A stretch of 32,000 nucleotides of DNA. It comes from Deinococcus radiodurans R1 = ATCC 13939 = DSM 20539. Lineage in GTDB: Bacteria; Deinococcota; Deinococci; Deinococcales; Deinococcaceae. The DNA lies in contig NC_001263.1 of NCBI RefSeq assembly GCF_000008565.1, positions 1,790,603 through 1,822,602 on the forward strand, written 5' to 3'. The notes beneath the pieces are model-generated. The model worked only from the letters and a program-made list of their open reading frames with translations. It was not told the DNA's origin and did no database searches. Below are positions 5,571 to 25,752 of the stretch, piece after piece. The translations under genes were made by a program, and so were the position numbers. How positions within the stretch are numbered: position 1 is the first letter of the stretch; every line of letters begins with the position of its first letter.

Positions 5571-7295
5571 ATGCCTGACCCCGCTGCCCGCCGCTTTTCC
5601 CTGCCCCCTTTTCCGCTGGCCGCTCTGGCCCTGAGTGTGGCCCTGCTGGGAGCGCCCGCCTCCCTTGCGCAGACCGCCGCGCCTGCCCCTGCGCCGGCCC
5701 AGACGCCCGCTGCCGCCAGCCGCGCCGCCGCGCCCCGCGTGAGCTGGACCAAGCCGCTCAAGGTGTCGTCGCCGGTCAGCATCGGCCCGCGCGGCGAGCT
5801 GACCTACGTGGGCAACGACAGCCGAGTGCACCGCACCGATGCGAGCGGCAAGGAGCTGTGGTCCTTCGCCCTCGGGGACATAGGCCGCGCCCAGCCGGTG
5901 CTGACGCCCGACGGCGGCGTGATCACGGCGGCGTATGACGACACGGTGTACGCCCTGTCCCCCGCCGGGCAACTGACCTGGAAAGCCAAACTCGACGGCG
6001 ACGTGTTCGCCAGCCCCGCCCTGCGGCCCGACGGCAGCGTGGTCGTCGCCACGGCGGGCGGCACGGTCTATGCGCTGAGCAGCAGCGGACAGACCCTCTG
6101 GAGCTACAAGGTGGGGGCGCCGGTCTTCAGTTCGCCTGCCGTGGCCGCCGACGGCACCATCTACTTTGGGGCACAAAATGGCCGACTGCACGCGCTGAGT
6201 CCCGAGGGGCGGCTGACCTGGACCTACGCGGCGCGTTCGTCGGTGTTCAGCTCGCCCGCGCTCGACGCCGAGGGCAATCTCTACTTCGGCTCGGGGGACC
6301 GCAGCATCTACAGCCTCTCTCCCGCCGGAACGCTGCGCTGGGTGCAGCCCACCGGCCTGTTCGTGAACGCCAGCCCCATCGTGACCCGCGCCGGGCTGGT
6401 GGTGGTCGGCAGCTACGATGGTCAGCTCTACGCCCTGAACACCAATGGACAGGTCGCCTGGACCTACGCCGCCGGGGCCGCCATCGCCGCGCCTGCCGCC
6501 GAACTGAGCGACGGCAGCGTGGTGGTCGGTGACCTCAACGGCACCCTGCACGCGGTGACGCCCACCGGGCAGGCGTTGTGGACGCTGCCGGGTGGCGCCA
6601 AGATCGACACCGGCGCGGCGGTCAGCGACCAGGGCACCCTCTACTTCGCGGTGGACGGCGGGAACCTCAACGCCGTCGAGAACCTGCGTCCGCTGGCGAC
6701 CGGCCCCTGGCCCACCTTCCGCGCCTCGCCGCTGGGCTGGGGCCGCAGCGCGACGGCGGCGGAGTTGACCGCTCAGACCCAGGCGCGTCAGGCCGCCGCC
6801 GCCGCGAGCACCAGTCAGCAGCCGCGTCTGCCCACGCTGGCACAGGCACCGGCTCCAACGCCTGCACCGGCTCAGACGACGCCCCGGCCACAGCCCACGC
6901 CTGCTCAGCCGGCGACGCCTGCGGCTCCGGTGCCACCGGTCGCCAGCCCAGCCCCGGCCACTGCGCGCCTCACCCCCCAGGTCATCGGCGGGGTCATCTA
7001 CCTGCCGCTTTCGCCCATCGCGGCGGGGCTGGGGTATCAGGTCCAGGCAGGCAGCCCCACCCGCGCCCTGTTGGTGGCTGGGTCGCAGCGGCTGACCGTG
7101 CCAGTGCGGGCAGTGGGCGGCCAGAGCCTGATTGCCCTGCGCTTCGTCACTGGGTTGCCGGGCGTCAGTGTTGAGCGGCAGGCTGGGACTCTCACCCTGC
7201 GCCGCGAAGGCCTGAGCGCGGCGCTGCCACTCGACCTCGCGCAACTGCTGCCGTGGGCGCCGCAGCCGGAATTCCCGGGCGTCGTGCGCCGCTGA
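5571..7295 (+). CDS. Secreted PQQ-like (BamB/YncE-type) beta-propeller repeat protein with Pro/Ala/Thr/Gln-rich linker and small C-terminal domain
   Basis: Signal peptide ending ASLAQT. About 8 repeats of the pattern G.(V/I/L)YA(L/V)(S/N)..G...W. A low-complexity PAPTPAPAQTTPRPQPTPAQPATPAAP tract follows. The C-terminal ~90 aa resembles a copper-amine-oxidase N-terminal-like 'stalk' domain, which is weak recognition only. GGAG SD upstream. Confidence 0.8.
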   Translation: MPDPAARRFSLPPFPLAALALSVALLGAPASLAQTAAPAPAPAQTPAAASRAAAPRVSWTKPLKVSSPVSIGPRGELTYVGNDSRVHRTDASGKELWSFALGDIGRAQPVLTPDGGVITAAYDDTVYALSPAGQLTWKAKLDGDVFASPALRPDGSVVVATAGGTVYALSSSGQTLWSYKVGAPVFSSPAVAADGTIYFGAQNGRLHALSPEGRLTWTYAARSSVFSSPALDAEGNLYFGSGDRSIYSLSPAGTLRWVQPTGLFVNASPIVTRAGLVVVGSYDGQLYALNTNGQVAWTYAAGAAIAAPAAELSDGSVVVGDLNGTLHAVTPTGQALWTLPGGAKIDTGAAVSDQGTLYFAVDGGNLNAVENLRPLATGPWPTFRASPLGWGRSATAAELTAQTQARQAAAAASTSQQPRLPTLAQAPAPTPAPAQTTPRPQPTPAQPATPAAPVPPVASPAPATARLTPQVIGGVIYLPLSPIAAGLGYQVQAGSPTRALLVAGSQRLTVPVRAVGGQSLIALRFVTGLPGVSVERQAGTLTLRREGLSAALPLDLAQLLPWAPQPEFPGVVRR

Positions 7296-11963: not shown

Positions 11964-13358
11964 ATGACCTTTTCCGAACTCGACCCCCGCACGCTCACGG
12001 CGCTCGGCACCGCCGGGGCGCTGGAGGCGGCGACCTCGCCCCGCGCCCCGGCGGACGTGCTCAGCGGCCTCTCGGCGCATCCCGACGCCCGCGTCCGGGC
12101 TCAGGTGGCGCTCAACCCCAACACCCCCGCCGAGGTGCTGGGCCTGCTCGCCGCTCAGTTTCCGCGTGAGGTGCTGAGCAATCCGGGATTGCCGCTGCTG
12201 AGGCTCGCGCGCCCCGGCCTGCTGGGGTCGTTTCCTGCCGAGGGGGTCACGGCGCTGCTCGCGCTGCCCGACGCGCCCGGCTGGGTGGTGGATTCGGCGC
12301 TGCGGCACGAGGACTACGGGGTCCGCACGGCGCTCGCGGCCCGGCCGGGGCTCTCCCCCGAGCGGGTCACGGCGCTGGCGGGGGACGCCGGGTGGCAGGT
12401 GCGCGAGGCGGTGGCGCAGCGCCCGGACCTGCCCGAGCCCCTGCTGCGCCAGCTCGCGGAGGATGAGGACTACGACGTGCGCAAGGCCACCGCGCTGCGC
12501 CCCGACCTGCCCGGCGACCTGCTGCGGACGCTGGTGACCGACCCGCACACCCTGGTGCGGGCGAACGTGGCGCGGCGGCTGGATTTGCCGCTCGACTGCC
12601 TGCTCTCGCTGGCGACAGGCGGCGACCCCGACGTGCTGGCGACCCTGGCCCGCCGCACCGACCTGCCCGCCAGTGTGCGCGAGTGGCTCGCGGCCAGTGC
12701 GGAGCCGCTGGTGCGCTCGGCGGCGCTGCAAGCCTGGACGGTGCCCGAGTCGTGGCTCGCCCGCGCCGAAACCGACGCCGACCCCGACGTTCGCTCGGCC
12801 CTAGCCCGCCGTCCTGATCTGTCGCCAGAAGTGCTGGAACGCCTCGCTCATGACGAATCGGGGACCGTGCGCCGGACACTGCTCGAACGCAACGACCTGC
12901 CCGACGGCGCAATTCTTGCCCTCGCACAGGCCCCCGAGCCCGACCTCCGCTTGCAGGTGGCGAGTGCCGAGGAACTGCCCGCCGCCGCCCTCGAAGCCCT
13001 GCTGACCGACGAGAGCACCGACGTGCGGACCATCCTCGCCGTGCGGCCCGACCTCGGCCCCGAACGGCTCGCCCGCCTCGCCGCCGACGAGAGCGCCGAG
13101 GTGCGCCGGGGGGCGGCCCTGGCGCCGACGCTGCCGCCCGAGTTGCTGCGTCAGCTTTCCGCCGACCCGAACGCGGGGGTGCGCCGAACCCTTCTGACCC
13201 GCCGCGAGCTGCCCGCCGAAGTGATTCGCGAGCTCGCCGCCGACCCCGACGAGGGCGTGCGCCTGCTGGTGGCCGGGCGCGCTGGTCTGCCCGCCGACTT
13301 GCGCGAGCAACTGGCGGCGGACCCCGATGAAAATGTGCGGCGGGAGGTTGCAGGGTGA
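11964..13358 (+). CDS. Leucine-rich-variant (LRV)/HEAT-like tandem repeat protein
   Basis: 464 aa made almost entirely of ~23-24-aa units of the form D.D..VR..LA.RPDLP.E.L..LA. About 15 or more copies by eye. TATCCT lies 7 nt upstream of the ATG and there is no SD, which suggests a leaderless mRNA. Confidence 0.75.
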   Translation: MTFSELDPRTLTALGTAGALEAATSPRAPADVLSGLSAHPDARVRAQVALNPNTPAEVLGLLAAQFPREVLSNPGLPLLRLARPGLLGSFPAEGVTALLALPDAPGWVVDSALRHEDYGVRTALAARPGLSPERVTALAGDAGWQVREAVAQRPDLPEPLLRQLAEDEDYDVRKATALRPDLPGDLLRTLVTDPHTLVRANVARRLDLPLDCLLSLATGGDPDVLATLARRTDLPASVREWLAASAEPLVRSAALQAWTVPESWLARAETDADPDVRSALARRPDLSPEVLERLAHDESGTVRRTLLERNDLPDGAILALAQAPEPDLRLQVASAEELPAAALEALLTDESTDVRTILAVRPDLGPERLARLAADESAEVRRGAALAPTLPPELLRQLSADPNAGVRRTLLTRRELPAEVIRELAADPDEGVRLLVAGRAGLPADLREQLAADPDENVRREVAG

Positions 13359-16766: not shown

Positions 16767-17066
16767 ATGGTACCCGTTGAGAGACAGCTAGTCATTACGG
16801 CTTTGGGCCTGCCGCAGCGCACTCTCAACGGCAACGACTACCTCATCTGTCAGACGACCGAGGGCGAGGTCGTGCTGTGGCTGGCTCCCGACCCGGCGCC
16901 ACAGCTGCGGGTGCTCCGCGCGTTGACTTTGCCCCGCCGGGTGCGGCTGCCGTGCCTGCCGGACCGCGAGAACGCCGGGCGCTTCTGGGTGCCCGAGTCG
17001 GCCCGGGTGGTGGTCGTGGACAGCGCCGAGTGCGCGGCCCCGGCCCACCACTGCCAGCCTGCCTAA
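16767..17066 (+). CDS. Small hypothetical protein (99 aa)
   Basis: High GC3 in frame. No family recognised. Confidence 0.45.
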   Translation: MVPVERQLVITALGLPQRTLNGNDYLICQTTEGEVVLWLAPDPAPQLRVLRALTLPRRVRLPCLPDRENAGRFWVPESARVVVVDSAECAAPAHHCQPA

Positions 17067-17110
17067 CCTGCCCCCCAGCCCCGGCCCCGGCCCGGCGCTA
17101 CAGTCCAGGC

Positions 17111-17173
17111 ATGTTCAGCGTGACCCGTGAGAAACCGGCCCCGGCGGGCCTTCTTCTTCGTCTGGGGCGTTGA
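17111..17173 (+). promoter_or_regulatory. Candidate leu leader peptide ORF ([20 protein letters not shown])
   Basis: 20-codon ORF with CTT-CTT-CTT-CGT-CTG (17150-17164). CTT is an atypical Leu codon in this GC3-rich genome. TACAGT (17099-17104) lies 6 nt upstream of the ATG and there is no SD. A terminator hairpin follows before leuC. Confidence 0.6.
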
Positions 17174-17201
17174 GCGCGAGTTTCCCAGCCGTTCTTCACG
17201 T

Positions 17202-17236
17202 GCCCCCCGCAGCCGAGTAGCTGAGGGGGCGTTTTT
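17202..17236 (+). terminator. Attenuator-type intrinsic terminator in the leuC 5' leader
   Basis: GCCCCC(17202-17207)-cg-CAGC ... GCTG-a-GGGGGC(17225-17230), followed by GTTTTTCG. It lies 32 nt upstream of the leuC ATG and its GGGGGAGG SD. Confidence 0.65.
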
Positions 17237-17267
17237 CGTCCGAAGGATTGATCTGGGGGAGGTCCAT

Positions 17268-18563
17268 ATGGGAATGACGATTGCCGAGAAGATGCTGGCC
17301 GCCCACAGCGGGCACGACACCGTGGTGCCGGGCCAACTCATCGAGTGCGCCACCGACTGGGTGCTGTGCCACGAAATCACCACGCCCGCCGCGCTGAGGA
17401 TGCTCGAGGAGCGCGGCATGGACCGGGTGTTCGACCCGCAGAAGATCGTGGCGGTGCCCGACCACTCGGTGCCTGCCATGAACATCAAGGCCGCCAAGAT
17501 GTACCAAAAGCTCAAGAGCTGGGTGCAGGAAAAAGGCATCGAGCACTTCTACGACGTGGGGCGCGGCGGCATCGCTCACGTGGTGCTGGAAAACACCGGC
17601 CTGATGAAGCCGGGGCAGACGCTGGTTTCCGGCGACTCGCACACCTGCAATGCGGGCGCACTGGGCGCCTTCGCGACCGGCGTGGGCTCGACCGACCTCG
17701 CGGGCGCCATCTACGCGGGCAAGGTGTGGTTCAAGGTGCCCGAGACGATGCTCATCCGGGTGACGGGAAAAACCAACCCCGGCGTGACCCCCAAGGACAT
17801 CGTGCTGGAGGTCATCAAGCAGATCGGGGCCGACGGCGCCAACTACATGGTGATGGAATGGGTGGGCGACTACATCGACCAGCTCGACATGGAAGGCCGC
17901 TTCACCCTGACCAACATGGCGATTGAGGCGGGCGGCAAGACCGGCATCGTGGCGGTGGACGACACCACCCGCGCCTACATGCAGCAGCGCGGCGTGTCGC
18001 CCGAGCAGTACACCGAGTACCAGTCCGACCCCGACGCCAAGTACAAGGTCGTGGTCGAGATTGACGCCGCGCAGGTCGAACCCACCGTCGCCTACCCCCA
18101 CATTCCCAGCAACGGCCGGGTGGCGGGCAGCGACCGCATCCGGGTGACGCACGCCTACGTGGGCAGCTGCACGAACGGGCGCATCACGGACCTGCGCGAC
18201 GTGGCCCGGATTCTGAAGGGCCGCAAGGTGGCGCAGGACGTGCAGATGATTGTCGTGCCGGCGACGCAGGCCATCTGGAAGCAGGCGGCGCAGGAAGGGC
18301 TGCTCGAAATCTTCGTGGACGCGGGCGCGAGCGTCAGCTACCCCTCGTGCGGCGCCTGTCTGGGGATGCACTCGGGCGTACTCGGGCCAGACGACATCTG
18401 CATTTCGAGTTCCAACCGCAACTTCGTGGGCCGTATGGGCGACCCCTCGGCGCAGATTTACCTCGCCAGCCCCGCCACGGTGGCCGCGAGCGCAGTGGAG
18501 GGCTTCATCGCCGACCCGCGCCGCTATGACGCCGAGGGCAACGACCTGAACGCGGCGGACTGA
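17268..18563 (+). CDS. leuC: 3-isopropylmalate dehydratase large subunit (short LeuC/HacA type)
   Basis: 431 aa from [15 protein letters not shown]. Aconitase-family motifs [30 protein letters not shown] and SCGACLG. Strong SD GGGGGAGG. Confidence 0.92.
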
Positions 18564-18569
18564 GCGGAC

Positions 18570-18911
18570 ATGAACCCCGCAGACTTTCCGCCCAGTTGGC
18601 TGCTGACCTATTTCGTCATCGGCTGGGGGCTGGGTCTGCTGGCGGTGCGCGACTGGAAATGGGCGGCGCTGTGCGGCCTGACCACCACGCTGGCTGTGGT
18701 CTTTGTCTTGCACGGGCAAACACCACCTGTATTCCGTCTCGGGCCGCTGTGGGGGCTGTCGGCGCTGGGGCTGCTGGCGCTGTGGGGCGTTTCGCGCCTG
18801 CCAGTCCTTGCTGCCCGGGTGGGCCTCGCGGCGGTTCTGACGCCACTGGTGACATGGGTGGTGCTCAACGCTGGCTTTCTGCTCTTTATGAACGTCGCCC
18901 AAATCTCCTGA
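18570..18911 (+). CDS. Small multi-TM membrane protein, hypothetical
   Basis: 113 aa with about 4 hydrophobic helices. It starts 6 nt after the leuC stop on the same strand. Confidence 0.55.
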   Translation: MNPADFPPSWLLTYFVIGWGLGLLAVRDWKWAALCGLTTTLAVVFVLHGQTPPVFRLGPLWGLSALGLLALWGVSRLPVLAARVGLAAVLTPLVTWVVLNAGFLLFMNVAQIS

Positions 18912-18942
18912 AGGCCGCTCTTCTCCGGGAGACGCGGGCACA

Positions 18943-20007
18943 ATGAAAGGTGACATGACACTAGACCCCATGAAGTTGCTTCCTCCCGGCGTGCGACCTT
19001 TCGAGGTCACCCTGCACCCCGGCGGACAGCTGGACATTCGCGGCCTGGACGAGGAAGCGCAGGCCATGCAGGTGGCCGAGGCCCTGAAACAGACGCCGCT
19101 GGCGGGCGTGCGTGAGGACACGGCGCTCTGGCGGGTGCGCGGGCTGCTCATTCGCGGTCAGGCGCAGTTGTACGAATACGCGGTATCTGAAACGGGCGAC
19201 GCGGAGGAGGCGAGCTGGGAAACGCGCCCCTTTCCCGACATGCCCGGCGTGCCGGTGCAAGGGGACGGGGCGGCGCCGAGCACCTTCGACGCGCTGCACT
19301 ACCGTGAGGGCCGCATCGACCTCGAACCCGACGCGCCCGACGACCTGCTCGACGCGGTGGAAGACGCCGTGCGCGAGTACCACGGCACCGAGCAAAACTG
19401 GGCCGAGCGCCACGCGGCGGCGGGCGGCCCGGCAAACGAACTGCCCGAAGCGCGGCGGGTGCGGCTGCGGCTGGAGGAGACGGGGCTGGATGGCGCGGCG
19501 GGACTGCGGTTCGTTGCCCTGCCCGAGACGGCGGAGTATCTGCACGGCGGCGAGTGGCACCCTTACGCGCCCGCCCCGCAGAACCTCGCCCTCGACGCAC
19601 CCGAGCAGTCAAACGAGGAAGATGACAGCCCCTTCGACCTCTTTTCCTCGCTGTTCGACCTGCACAGCGTGACCGCCGAGCTGCACGCCGACGGGCGGGT
19701 GGAGGTGCAGGGCGAGGATCTCGCGCCGGAGCTGCGCGCGGCGTTGCAGTCTCACCTGGGGGCCGACCTCGGCGCGGGCGACCCGGCGAAGTGGGAGGTG
19801 GCCCTGCGCGGGCTGTTCGGCCTGGAAGAAGGCGACGAGGTGCCGAGCGGCCTGCGCGTGGGCCTGCTGCGTCAGATGGTGGAGGCCGACCCCGCACTGG
19901 CGGCGCAGGCCATCACCCCGAGCGCCGTGACCTTCGACGGGCAGACCTGGACCGAGCTGGATGATGGGGACGATGGGGACGAGCCCGATGAGGGGGACGA
20001 CGAATGA
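18943..20007 (+). CDS. Hyper-acidic hypothetical protein A (three-module repeat architecture)
   Basis: 354 aa with high GC3. The tail is ELDDGDDGDEPDEGDDE. It is a clear paralog of the next gene, for example HYREGRIDLEPDAPDD vs HWLEGRIDVTPDVGELDE, and VTFDGQTWTEL vs VTFDGETWRDL. An alternative start is the ATG at 18955. Confidence 0.7.
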   Translation: MKGDMTLDPMKLLPPGVRPFEVTLHPGGQLDIRGLDEEAQAMQVAEALKQTPLAGVREDTALWRVRGLLIRGQAQLYEYAVSETGDAEEASWETRPFPDMPGVPVQGDGAAPSTFDALHYREGRIDLEPDAPDDLLDAVEDAVREYHGTEQNWAERHAAAGGPANELPEARRVRLRLEETGLDGAAGLRFVALPETAEYLHGGEWHPYAPAPQNLALDAPEQSNEEDDSPFDLFSSLFDLHSVTAELHADGRVEVQGEDLAPELRAALQSHLGADLGAGDPAKWEVALRGLFGLEEGDEVPSGLRVGLLRQMVEADPALAAQAITPSAVTFDGQTWTELDDGDDGDEPDEGDDE

Positions 20008-20036
20008 CGCGCCGCTCTCTGCCACACTGGGGCCAT

Positions 20037-21351
<1,315 letters not shown>

Positions 21352-21352
21352 C

Positions 21353-21703
21353 ATGACGCTGCCCGGCCTGTTCCTGTGCGCGGCGCTGCTGTACGCGGCG
21401 TGGCTCAGGCTGGGCTGGCACCACACGGCGCCCGCTGAGGTTCCGGCGCTGTGGCGCAATGCGGTGTTGATACTGGCCGTATGTTTCTTGCCCGCCACCT
21501 ACACCTTGCAGGAATACAGGTCGTGGGCCCATCTGACCTTTCCCTTTTCCCTGCTCGTCTGGGCAGCCTTGCTGCTGATATCCCTGACCGCCGGACTCAT
21601 TCAACTGGCCCGGGGGCGTTTCGGGAGCGGCTGGCCGTTGCTGGGGCTGCCCGCCGGGGCGCTGGGCATGAGCCTGCTGAACGCGCTGCTGGGAGGGCGA
21701 TGA
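21353..21703 (+). CDS. Small multi-TM membrane protein, hypothetical
   Basis: 116 aa with about 4 helices. The ATG lies 1 nt after the previous stop. Its stop overlaps the next ATG (ATGA at 21700-21703). Confidence 0.55.
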   Translation: MTLPGLFLCAALLYAAWLRLGWHHTAPAEVPALWRNAVLILAVCFLPATYTLQEYRSWAHLTFPFSLLVWAALLLISLTAGLIQLARGRFGSGWPLLGLPAGALGMSLLNALLGGR

Positions 21704-22034
21704 CCCTGTGGTGGCCTCCTTTGCTCTTCGCCGGCACTTACCTGCTCTGGCTGCTGTGGGGTCAGCTCAGGGTGCCCGGCGTGCTGAGCCAAACGCTCTG
21801 GACGGCGGGGCCACTTGGCTGCTGGCCGTTACTGCCGCCTATCTCTGGGTCACGGCTTCGCCCGCACCCGACACGAGCTTGGCCGCTCTGTTGCCTCTCT
21901 TCCCCTTTCTCTTTCTCGCCACGTTGTCACTCGCGCTGGGCCGCTCGCGCAACCGTGCTCTGGCCTGGGCGTGCTGGGGCGTGACGCCCTGTCTGCCGCT
22001 GACCGCCCTTCTTCTCTTTGGCCTTTTTCACTGA
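21700..22034 (+). CDS. Small multi-TM membrane protein, apparently frameshifted (or misassembled) near 21795-21815
   Basis: From ATG 21700 the reading is MTLWWPPLLFAGTYLLWLLWGQL..., TM-like with high GC3. After about 21805 the high-GC3, TM-like reading switches to the frame of the tracked ORF 21708..22034 (..ATWLLAVTAAYLWV...LLLFGLFH*). That ORF's own N-terminal ~33 codons have poor GC3. Confidence 0.45.
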
Positions 22035-22055: not shown

Positions 22056-22674
22056 ATGCCCACTGTTCACGTCTTTGCCCGTGACCACATCAACACCGAC
22101 GAAATCATTCCCGCCCGCCACCTGACCACCGACGTGGAATCGGAGCTGGCGAAGTACGCGATGGAGGACTACGACAAGGACTTCGTGCGGCGCGTGCAGC
22201 CCGGCGACATCATCGTGGCCGGGGCCGACTTCGGCTGCGGGTCGAGCCGTGAGCACGCCGTCTGGGCGCTGCGTGGCGCGGGCGTTTCGGCGGTCATCGC
22301 GCCCAACTTTGCCCGCATCTACTACCGCAACTCCATCAACAACGGCTTTCTGGCGCTGGAATGCGAGGGCATCACGGAGCTGTTTCAGGACGGCGAAGAA
22401 GCCGAACTCGACCTGAAGGGCGGCACCATTCGCAACCCGCGCACCGGGAAGGAACTGAGCTTCGTGCCGGTGCCGCAATTCGCGCTCGACGTGCAGAAGG
22501 CGGGCGGCTGGCTGGAATACATGAAGGCGGGCGAGGACGTGGAAGGCGAGCGGCTCGACAACGCGAGCACCTCGGCGGGTCACGGTCACGCGGGCACGCC
22601 GCTCGGCGACGACCCGGCCAAGGAAGACGGCCCCCGCCCCGAACAGGCCAGCGGCCACCAAAAGGAGGAGCACC

Positions 22675-22682
<8 letters not shown>
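22056..22682 (+). CDS. leuD: 3-isopropylmalate dehydratase small subunit with ~50-aa His/acidic C-terminal extension
   Basis: Motifs [24 protein letters not shown] and YRNSINNG. The core ends near residue 158. A low-complexity tail follows. Confidence 0.9.
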
Positions 22683-23733
<1,051 letters not shown>

Positions 23734-24031: not shown

Positions 24032-24340
24032 ATGCCCCCCGCCGTCTCGTTTTCCGGTCCCAGACGCATTCCCTACCCCGGCGGCTGCGTGACCGAGCCC
24101 GCGCCTTACGCGCTCGACTACCTGCTGAAATGGCCCGCCGACGTGACAGTGAACGGCGAAGTTCATCATGGCAAGCCGGTCTTTCCCTTCGTGCAGGAAC
24201 TGCTGGCCGACCCCGCCGCGCACGGCCTGACGCCGGCGGAGGCCGGGGCCGCCCGTGACCTGTTTGTGGATCTGGCGGGGCAAGCGCTTGAAGCCGAAGG
24301 TGGGAAACGGGAATGGCTGCGGCGGGAGTTCGAGCGCTGA
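24032..24340 (+). CDS. Small hypothetical protein (102 aa)
   Basis: High GC3. -10-like TACACT (24020-24025) lies 6 nt upstream of the ATG, which suggests a leaderless mRNA. Its 3' end overlaps the MocR start by 28 nt. Confidence 0.55.
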
Positions 24341-25752
24341 GCAGGAACGCCGTGCTGGACGACCTCACCCTGCTGCCCCCCGAAACTGGCGAAGCGCTGC
24401 ACACCCGCACCGAGCGCACCCTGCGGGCAGCGATTGGGCAGGGACGGCTGCCGCAGGGCACCCGGCTGCCGGGGCACCGGGCGCTGGCGGCGGCGCTGGG
24501 CGTGTCGCGCAATACGCTGGTAGACGCACTGGCACAGCTCGAAATCGAAGGGTACGTGGAGGTGCGTGGGCGCAGCGGCACGCGGGTCTGTGTGCCGCCC
24601 GACGAGGCCGCGCCGCCTTCTCCCCCGCCCCTGCCGCTGAGTGCCTGGGCGCGCCGGGCGCTGGGCGGGCAGGTGGAGGACGCGGGCGGCGAGTATGAGT
24701 TCGACCTACGCATTGGGCAGCCGGTGCCGGAGCTCTACCCAGCGCGCGCGTGGGCGCAGGCCCTCGCTCGCCGCGCTGCCGCGCCGCATGAGGGAGAGGG
24801 CTGCGCGACCCCCTCGGCCCGCCGCGAAACCCGCCGCGCCCTGGCCGCCTACCTGCGCTCGGAACGCGGGGCGCAGGTGACGCCGGAGATGATTTTGCTC
24901 ACCGGGGGCACGCAGTCCTCGCTCGATGCCCTGTCGCGCATCCTGCTCGAACCGGGGCGGCTGGCGGTGACCGAGCAGCCGGGGTATCCGGGCGCCCACG
25001 CAGCGTTCAGCGCAACCGGGGCGCAGGTGCTCGGCGCGGCGGTGGACGGCGGGGGCCTGCGCCCGGGCGACCTCCCGGCGCGGGCTGACCTGCTTTACCT
25101 CACCCCGGCGTGCCAGTACCCCACCACCGTGACCCTGGGCGCGGCGCGGCGGCAGGAGGTCATTCGCTGGGCGCGGCGCAGCGGGGCATTTGTTCTCGAA
25201 GACGACTACGCCGCCGACCTGCACTGGCAGGGGCGGCCCCCGAGCGTCTTGCAGGGCCAGGCGCCCGACCGGGTGATTTTGCTCGGCAGCTTTTCCAAGA
25301 GCCTGGCCCCCGTGACCCGCAGCGGCTTCGTGGTGGCGCCGCCGGAGGTGACCGAGGTGCTTTCGCGCACCCGGCCCCTCACCGACCGGGTGCCCGGCGT
25401 GCTCGACGCCCTGGCGCTCGCCGACGTGCTCGCCTCGGGCGCCTACACCCGGCACCTGCGGCGCGCCCGCGCCCTGCTCGCGCACCGTGGGGGGGCGCTG
25501 CTCACGGCGCTGCGGACCGAGCTGCCCCAGTGGGAAGCGTTGCCTGCCCGCGCCGGGCTGCACCTGTACGTGCGCCTGCCCCCCGGCAGCGACGAACAGG
25601 CGATCCTGGCCAGCGCCGCGCGGCTGGGGGTGGCCCTGTCCCCGGCGCGGTCAGGGGAGGCAGGAGGCGAACCGGCGGTGCTGCTCGCCTTCGGGCACCT
25701 CAGCCCCGAGGCGCTGCGACGGGCGGTGCGGCGGCTGCGGGCGTTGTCCTAG
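24313..25752 (+). CDS. MocR/PdxR-type regulator: GntR wHTH fused to a class-I aminotransferase-like PLP domain
   Basis: N-terminal [41 protein letters not shown] is a GntR HTH. The C-terminal ~350 aa are aminotransferase-fold (GSFSKSLAP has the Lys position). The exact start is uncertain. Confidence 0.85.

Follow-up and report, generated by a model that had tools for sequence, protein, structure and literature searches.

The leuC gene of Deinococcus radiodurans R1 is very probably preceded by a leucine-responsive, ribosome-mediated transcription attenuator whose short leader open reading frame (ORF) is itself leaderless, as judged from the sequence of this locus and of its relatives. The element lies at 17095-17267 of the 32-kb stretch of DNA that we analysed (32,000 nucleotides, hereafter the window), directly upstream of leuC. 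All the parts of a classical attenuator were found in silico, namely an ORF, Leu codons, a terminator, an antiterminator, an anti-antiterminator and a suitable geometry for ribosome stalling. An earlier note on this DNA had proposed leucine-specific attenuation through a leader peptide, and the conserved frame, the Leu run, the antiterminator and the promoter geometry described below all support that proposal; when the sequence was read, every sequence feature listed for the element was found at its coordinates. The earlier note contained neither the leaderless start, nor the pairing of the transcript 5' end with region 2, nor the ~3.5-kb separation of leuC from leuD. The first two emerge here, and the region 1:2 pairing completes the classical attenuator design. 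The leader, leuC, leuD and leuB features given below are all on the + strand.

Leader ORF and leucine codons

The leader ORF (17111-17173) begins with an ATG at 17111-17113, runs for 20 codons and ends with a TGA at 17171-17173. Its regulatory codons occupy 17150-17164, where CTT CTT CTT (17150-17158, codons 14-16) is followed by CGT and then by CTG (17162-17164, codon 18). The encoded LLLRL thus places four Leu in five codons, just as the earlier note had it. The claim that a run of three CTT codons is unusual beside the prevailing CTG and CTC also holds in the window: among its 25 likely genes (8821 codons), CTT makes up 30 of 967 Leu codons (3.1%), as opposed to 56.8% for CTG and 33.7% for CTC (together 90.5%). 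The 9-mer CTTCTTCTT occurs once in the 32-kb window, counting both strands, where 0.07 occurrences are expected. A search of the window for tRNA genes returned none.

Promoter geometry and a leaderless start

The hexamer TACAGT (17099-17104), which resembles a -10 element, stands 6 nt upstream of the leader ATG. This arrangement was compared across 25 leaders, i.e. the window and 24 other Deinococcaceae leuC upstream regions, comprising 18 core Deinococcus leaders and 7 divergent ones (from Deinobacterium, D. proteolyticus, D. peraridilitoris, D. yavapaiensis, D. lacus and two metagenome-derived sequences). In 24 of the 25, TAnnnT ends 6-8 nt before the leader ATG, compared with a background of 0.39% of window positions, and the sole exception carries CATAAT. 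A TTGnnn lies 17-18 nt farther upstream in 13 leaders and is not clear in the window itself; a simple promoter scanner did not detect the leader promoter. No properly spaced Shine-Dalgarno sequence precedes any of the 25 leader ORFs, whereas leuC has one (GGGGGAGG, 17255-17262, from the sequence read).

With a -10-like TAnnnT only 6-8 nt before the ATG, the transcript would start at or adjoining the leader AUG, and the ORF is therefore probably translated from a leaderless transcript. The same hexamer, present in 24 of 25 leaders, argues against a start downstream of 17173. There is a precedent within the genus. According to the sections of de Groot et al. (2014; PMC4007540) drawn on here, dRNA-seq of D. 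deserti classed 60% of mRNAs as leaderless, and 14 leadered mRNAs for amino-acid biosynthesis or tRNA synthetases carry at their very 5' end the start codon of a short ORF with many codons for the cognate residue, for which those authors proposed transcription attenuation. The promoter geometry of the leuC leaders matches the arrangement that these sections describe.

Terminator, antiterminator and anti-antiterminator

Between the leader ORF and the leuC Shine-Dalgarno sequence we predict an intrinsic terminator at 17202-17236, consisting of a hairpin (17202-17230, -17.5 kcal/mol) followed by G and TTTTT (17232-17236), where the earlier note had already placed one. A homologous GC-rich terminator hairpin is found in 25/25 leaders, with inner stems and loops that differ among them. 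A simple terminator scanner did not detect the leuC-leader terminator, probably owing to unpaired bases that interrupt its stem. The terminators of L010, L013, L024 and L084 (our designations for loci of the comparison set) have poor T-tracts despite strong stems, e.g. CGCCTTCGTG and TGTGCTGG, and termination there may be weak or independent of a T-run.

The antiterminator is formed from two short strands around an internal hairpin. Region 2 (GGGGCG, 17164-17169) is its 5' arm and overlaps the last leader codons, with the stop codon at 17171-17173 next to it; region 3 (TGCCCC, 17201-17206) can pair either with region 2 or, within the terminator, with 17225-17230; and the internal hairpin (TGAGCGC...GCCGTTC TTCA, 17171-17198) starts at the leader stop codon. 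When a ribosome is masked at the first Leu codon of a truncated transcript, 17164-17169 pairs with 17201-17206 around the hairpin at 17171-17198. The RNAalifold consensus of the 18 core leaders is this same antiterminator (GGGGCGN, TGAGCGC...GCGTTCA and NCGCCCC). In the region 2:3 helix, 96.4% of alignment cells form standard pairs, compared with 34-53% after a shift of the 3' partners by 1-3 columns, and double changes occur at two pairs; the internal hairpin (helix 2) has 98.4% of cells paired and is near-invariant in the core clade, with little covariation. The antiterminator that had been suggested from GGGGCG and TGCCCC is thus borne out by the consensus fold and by compensatory changes.

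A third helix involves the extreme 5' end of the transcript. The free leader folds at a minimum free energy of -29.5 kcal/mol with 15 pairs that link the 5' end to sequence past the Leu run. Region 1, the 5' strand of this predicted anti-antiterminator, spans 17113-17133, and its part 17113-17121 pairs with 17167-17175, so that transcript nucleotides 3-11 are joined to the last part of region 2 and to the segment with the stop codon. Here 91% of cells are paired as opposed to 26-54% in slid alignments, 0/500 shuffles match the observed value, and double changes are seen at three pairs. In L021, L023 and L024 a G-to-A change in region 2 is accompanied by C to T in region 1 and by T in region 3; L015 likewise has the region-3 match to an A in region 2, and is gapped at region 1 in the alignment. 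Because these linked changes span three regions, one region-2 position is matched in both of its alternative partners.

The stability of the region as a whole would not have flagged the element, and it is the comparative data that carry the case: the full 173-nt region folds no better than shuffled sequences (z = -0.35), and whole-region stability was accordingly dropped as evidence. A small apical hairpin (GGCCC-CGGC-GGGCC, 17137-17150), which ends at the first Leu codon, recurs in most species with a stability close to that of shuffled 24-mers (mean z -0.62; 7/25 below -1), and may in this model serve as a pause element.

Constraint folding and the proposed switch

We simulated ribosome positions by constraint folding, in which the RNA was masked to 13 nt past the first base of the A-site codon and the transcript was truncated before the terminator 3' arm. 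The alternative pairings expected of an attenuator were found under these conditions, as the folding check proposed in the earlier note required. A ribosome placed at the first Leu codon gives the antiterminator in 25/25 sequences at -14 to -30 kcal/mol, and the minimal stems of the terminators in the 25 sequences have comparable energies (-14 to -26 kcal/mol). Moved to the third Leu codon (core leaders) or to the stop, the ribosome leaves no region 2:3 helix, and the stop position leads to the terminator. In the window, the region 2:3 helix is already weaker when the stall is at the second CTT and is gone when it is at the third; by this model the first CTT alone is well placed for a stall.

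At equilibrium, when the full terminator is included, every species favours the terminator, even if the ribosome is placed at the first Leu codon, and the switch is visible only in truncated, i.e. co-transcriptional, folds. It follows that the decision has to be a kinetic one, as it is in classical attenuators. In 15/18 core leaders the distance from the first Leu codon to the start of the G-run is 13-14 nt, a constancy that largely reflects shared ancestry within one clade, and the spacing is thus not independent evidence. Nor can it be read as a precise ruler, for the edge of the antiterminator helix, folded without a ribosome mask, ranges from 5 to 17 nt after the first Leu codon.

These structures suggest the following sequence of events. 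Transcription would start on the A of the leader ATG (17111) or beside it, 7 nt past the -10 element, and a 70S ribosome would load on the 5'-terminal AUG. Should no ribosome load, region 1 would pair with region 2 and the stop-codon segment, so that region 3 would be available to region 4 for the terminator and transcription would end at the T-run (17232-17236). A ribosome that reached the TGA would occlude region 2 together with the internal hairpin's 5' arm, again allowing the terminator to form. When charged tRNA-Leu is scarce, by contrast, the ribosome would stall with the first rare CTT in its A site and its leading edge ~13 nt downstream, so that GGGGCG (17164-17169) would be exposed; region 2, the internal hairpin and region 3 would then fold as the antiterminator before the terminator 3' arm is made, and RNA polymerase would continue into leuC and the genes behind it. 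The transcription start, the translation of the ORF, the pausing and the leucine dependence in this scheme are all deduced from sequence.

Conservation and loss across the Deinococcaceae

The comparison drew on 27 Deinococcus loci from a genome scan and on six more distant proteins that were traced to contigs; the loci of D. radiodurans, D. deserti and D. geothermalis are absent from this comparison set. An ATG-initiated mini-ORF with an in-frame Leu run and a stop before the hairpin was found at 20/26 Deinococcus loci and at five further Deinococcaceae loci. In the 18 core loci the ORF is 15-23 codons long, and the Leu run lies 27, 39, 42, 45, 48 or 60 nt from the ATG, always in frame. The encoded peptides have in common only M1, usually F2, the Leu run (LLL) and a G, and are otherwise unrelated. 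Outside the core the Leu run is spelled differently: LL is CTA CTG in D. lacus, LLL is CTG CTA CTA in Deinobacterium chartae, and LLLL is CTC CTA CTG CTT in L018 and CTA CTG CTG CTT in the D. proteolyticus leuC leader, while the leaders of D. peraridilitoris and one metagenomic relative also fit the pattern in which the amino acid is kept and the nucleotides are changed. Such synonymous Leu runs are the pattern expected from selection on codons, and not from selection on an RNA motif or on the peptide. The conservation check that had been proposed for the leader ORF therefore comes out in its favour, with frame and Leu run kept and codons varying. A Chloroflexi-like relative that has leuA immediately upstream showed no leader.

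A covariance model trained on the core alignment gives one strong match per locus, directly upstream of leuC, and also recognizes members outside its training set (D. yavapaiensis, 64.6 bits; D. peraridilitoris, 40.6 bits). The genes upstream of the leader in the window (pcrA, NUDIX and a 99-codon ORF) were undetected in 28 related loci, even at 93-94% LeuC identity. Since the upstream genes differ while the module stays, the leader module belongs to leuC and not to an upstream gene.

The leader has been lost or has decayed in several species that keep leuC, and is thus dispensable. This applies to the regions upstream of leuC (about 5800-6000) in L004, L014, L016, L017, L019 and L025. In D. 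antarcticus there is no leader, and the leuC ATG comes straight after a TAGACT hexamer; in D. marmoris the segment from the Leu codons to the terminator is missing; in D. saxicola and D. arenicola the Leu run and frame are lost; and in D. frigens the leader ATG is replaced by ACG. Within the ~6 kb fetched downstream, no leuD or leuB was seen at the marmoris, saxicola, arenicola, frigens and L013 loci.

leuC and its neighbourhood

The gene behind the leader (17268-18563, ATG at 17268) encodes a probable 3-isopropylmalate dehydratase large subunit of the archaeal or hacA type (TIGR01343, 675 bits), and its closest LeuC relatives are all from Deinococcus (77-96% identity). LeuC and LeuD had been taken to form a pair; in fact leuD (22056-22682) is not adjacent and begins ~3.5 kb downstream of leuC in the same-strand gene string, where it is followed by leuB (22675-23733; TIGR00169, 436.8 bits against a cut-off of 353.2). 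The further claim, that these genes serve leucine rather than lysine (homoaconitase) synthesis, finds support mainly in leuB, with additional support from the linkage to leuA or ilvB, one of which adjoins the leuC locus in relatives, and from leader codons that are for Leu only. It receives none from the family models, which do not separate LeuC from homoaconitase (the product scores above the cut-off for hacA_fam, TIGR01343, and below it for LEU2). On balance the context favours a role for leuC in leucine rather than lysine synthesis, and the leader points to that role for an aconitase-family gene that sequence models cannot assign.

Five ORFs lie in the leuC-leuD gap (18570-22034), and neither Pfam nor NCBIfam gave a match to any of them. 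Two encode acidic proteins that are paralogues of each other (18943-20007, 354 aa; 20038-21351, 437 aa), and the other three are small and hydrophobic. Most Deinococcus loci that have leuD carry a homologue of the 437-aa protein in the interval between leuC and leuD, and in nearly all loci one is found downstream of leuC; Deinobacterium, D. peraridilitoris, D. proteolyticus and D. yavapaiensis lack it and have leuC-leuD-leuB as an uninterrupted block. From its sequence and position, the 437-aa protein appears as an uncharacterised family embedded in the leucine operon. Two other genes of the window may be recorded here, a 464-aa ORF with ~12 LRV and HEAT-like repeats that is unrelated to the leader (11964-13358, +) and, downstream of leuB, a MocR-type regulator in which a GntR-family HTH is fused to an aminotransferase class I/II domain (24313-25752, +).

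Sister leaders before other branched-chain genes

Similar leaders stand before other branched-chain genes (L082:5990-6130, L084:5910-6030, L020:12558-12697, L023:11280-11414, L006:11510-11644, and L083, minus strand, ~2620-2750), each with a -10 hexamer ~7 nt before an ATG, a short ORF and a GC-rich terminator. The weak secondary matches of the covariance model are ilvB leaders that encode MYAPSTAIIVVVLLGSGGSGR and similar peptides. The runs encoded before ilvB are IIVVVLL, AIVVVLL, VLVL and LLVLVL, and the leuA leader of D. proteolyticus encodes LL as CTA CTA. With Ile, Val and Leu codons before ilvB and Leu codons before leuA, the regulatory codons track the pathway, as they do in enterobacteria. 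A broader proposal, on which we are evenly divided, is that the leuC, ilvB and leuA leaders form a Deinococcaceae-wide, uncatalogued family of leaderless attenuators in which the 5'-terminal nucleotides are both the landing site of the ribosome and the anti-antiterminator strand.

Alternative explanations

Other readings of the same features have to be weighed against an attenuator. The hairpin and T-run might simply terminate the upstream ORF at 16767-17066, the mini-ORF being a chance frame in GC-rich DNA, where spurious ORFs are common; the terminator does lie 136 nt past this same-strand ORF, and the frame of the mini-ORF is open back to a GTG at 16877. It is leuC, however, that keeps the leader and terminator beside it while the upstream genes go undetected in 28 loci. 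In addition, a -10-like hexamer separates the upstream ORF from the leader ATG, and the in-frame Leu run is kept with different codons, so this reading is already largely refuted and must be considered extremely improbable. It is also very improbable, if slightly less so, that the leader is a structured RNA which goes untranslated and detects leucine, tRNA-Leu or a protein directly, with CUUCUUCUU acting as a binding or pairing element instead of as codons. Such an RNA would fit with the nucleotides from CTTCTTCTT to GGGGCGNTGAGCGC being more conserved than the peptide and with the pairing of the CUU run to a purine-rich stretch in the free fold, and three alternative helices would suit a riboswitch too. 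Yet Rfam gave no match in the whole window at gathering thresholds, and none over 17050-17300 at E up to 10 (T-box and Leu_leader included); start codon, frame and a stop before the terminator are kept across indels in 25/25 leaders; distant leaders have CTA, CTG or CTC in place of CTT, so that the amino acid is kept although the sequence is not; and the ilvB sister leaders carry Ile and Val codons instead.

A different possibility accepts that the Leu-rich ORF is translated and assigns control to something other than classical attenuation, be it Rho polarity, coupling or reinitiation, mRNA stability, or a leader peptide or RNA that acts in trans. The weak T-tracts of several relatives are in keeping with this, as is the history of comparable leaders: Streptomyces ilvB and leuA leaders of similar appearance, when mutated, did not follow the classical model (PMC1262725), and Sinorhizobium provides cases in which attenuator RNAs and peptides have effects in trans, as far as the portion of that literature drawn on here describes. 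In the window, though, the terminator has a good stem and T5, and the distance from the leader stop to the leuC start (94 nt) is too great for simple reinitiation to be likely. Moreover, the classical model depends on 1:2, 2:3 and 3:4 helices that exclude one another, and such helices, here with compensatory changes, are not required by the alternatives. Non-classical control is accordingly improbable in our estimation, and ribosome-mediated attenuation of the classical kind is the reading that we retain.

Comparison with known attenuators

An attenuator of this kind is known and already predicted in the genus, and the mechanism is textbook. Nothing specific came up when the literature was searched for a Deinococcus leu attenuator or for DR_1778, and the element itself, its three-helix architecture and its distribution were not found in the curated RNA families or the literature examined. 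The leaderless leader peptides of D. deserti (PMC4007540) come from the same genus and likewise comprise a short AUG-start ORF rich in the cognate residue; they were described from transcription start data and peptide composition, with no alternative RNA structures or cross-species covariation in the sections of that paper drawn on here, and its main text, to the same extent, does not name leuC among the 14 predictions.

The closest experimentally studied analogue of the leuC leader is the three-hairpin attenuator of C. glutamicum ilvBNC (PMC11857589, 2025), which resembles it in outline, having a leaderless leader mRNA and competition between antiterminator and terminator. Its first hairpin involves the 5' end and translation start, acts as an anti-antiterminator and limits ribosome loading, with an apex proposed as a pause signal, and its control codons include CUU, which the leuC leader also uses (PMC11857589). 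The two differ in phylum, operon and control codons (Leu and Val in ilvBNC), and the C. glutamicum system is backed by mutational data whereas the leuC leader is known from sequence alone. With the enterobacterial leu leader (Rfam Leu_leader) it has in common the 1:2, 2:3, 3:4 design and an intrinsic terminator before the first leu gene. The enterobacterial ORF, however, is led by a Shine-Dalgarno sequence and precedes leuA, whereas the Deinococcus leader is probably leaderless, precedes leuC and uses CUU. In Thermus thermophilus, of the same phylum, leader-peptide attenuation operates before a lysine cluster that includes an aconitase-family homoaconitase, with Lys regulatory codons and lysine made by the aminoadipate route. 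The regulatory codons of the window leader, in contrast, are all for Leu, and the genes behind it form a leuC...leuD-leuB string.

Implications

The leuC leader leaves the current understanding of attenuation unchanged. What it provides is a conserved element, consisting of a promoter, a leaderless ORF and three alternative helices, that Rfam and gene callers leave unannotated, and, because its ORF has no Shine-Dalgarno sequence, a convenient case for timing leaderless initiation relative to transcription. If the broader family proposed above is real, ribosome loading would be possible only in a short transcription window, the leaders would offer a natural system for transcription-translation coupling with Shine-Dalgarno-less 70S initiation, and the cold-adapted species, in which the leader has decayed repeatedly, would constitute a natural loss-of-function series. 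And if the leuC attenuator works as proposed, branched-chain amino-acid synthesis in Deinococcus would be under classical ribosome-sensing control at the RNA level.
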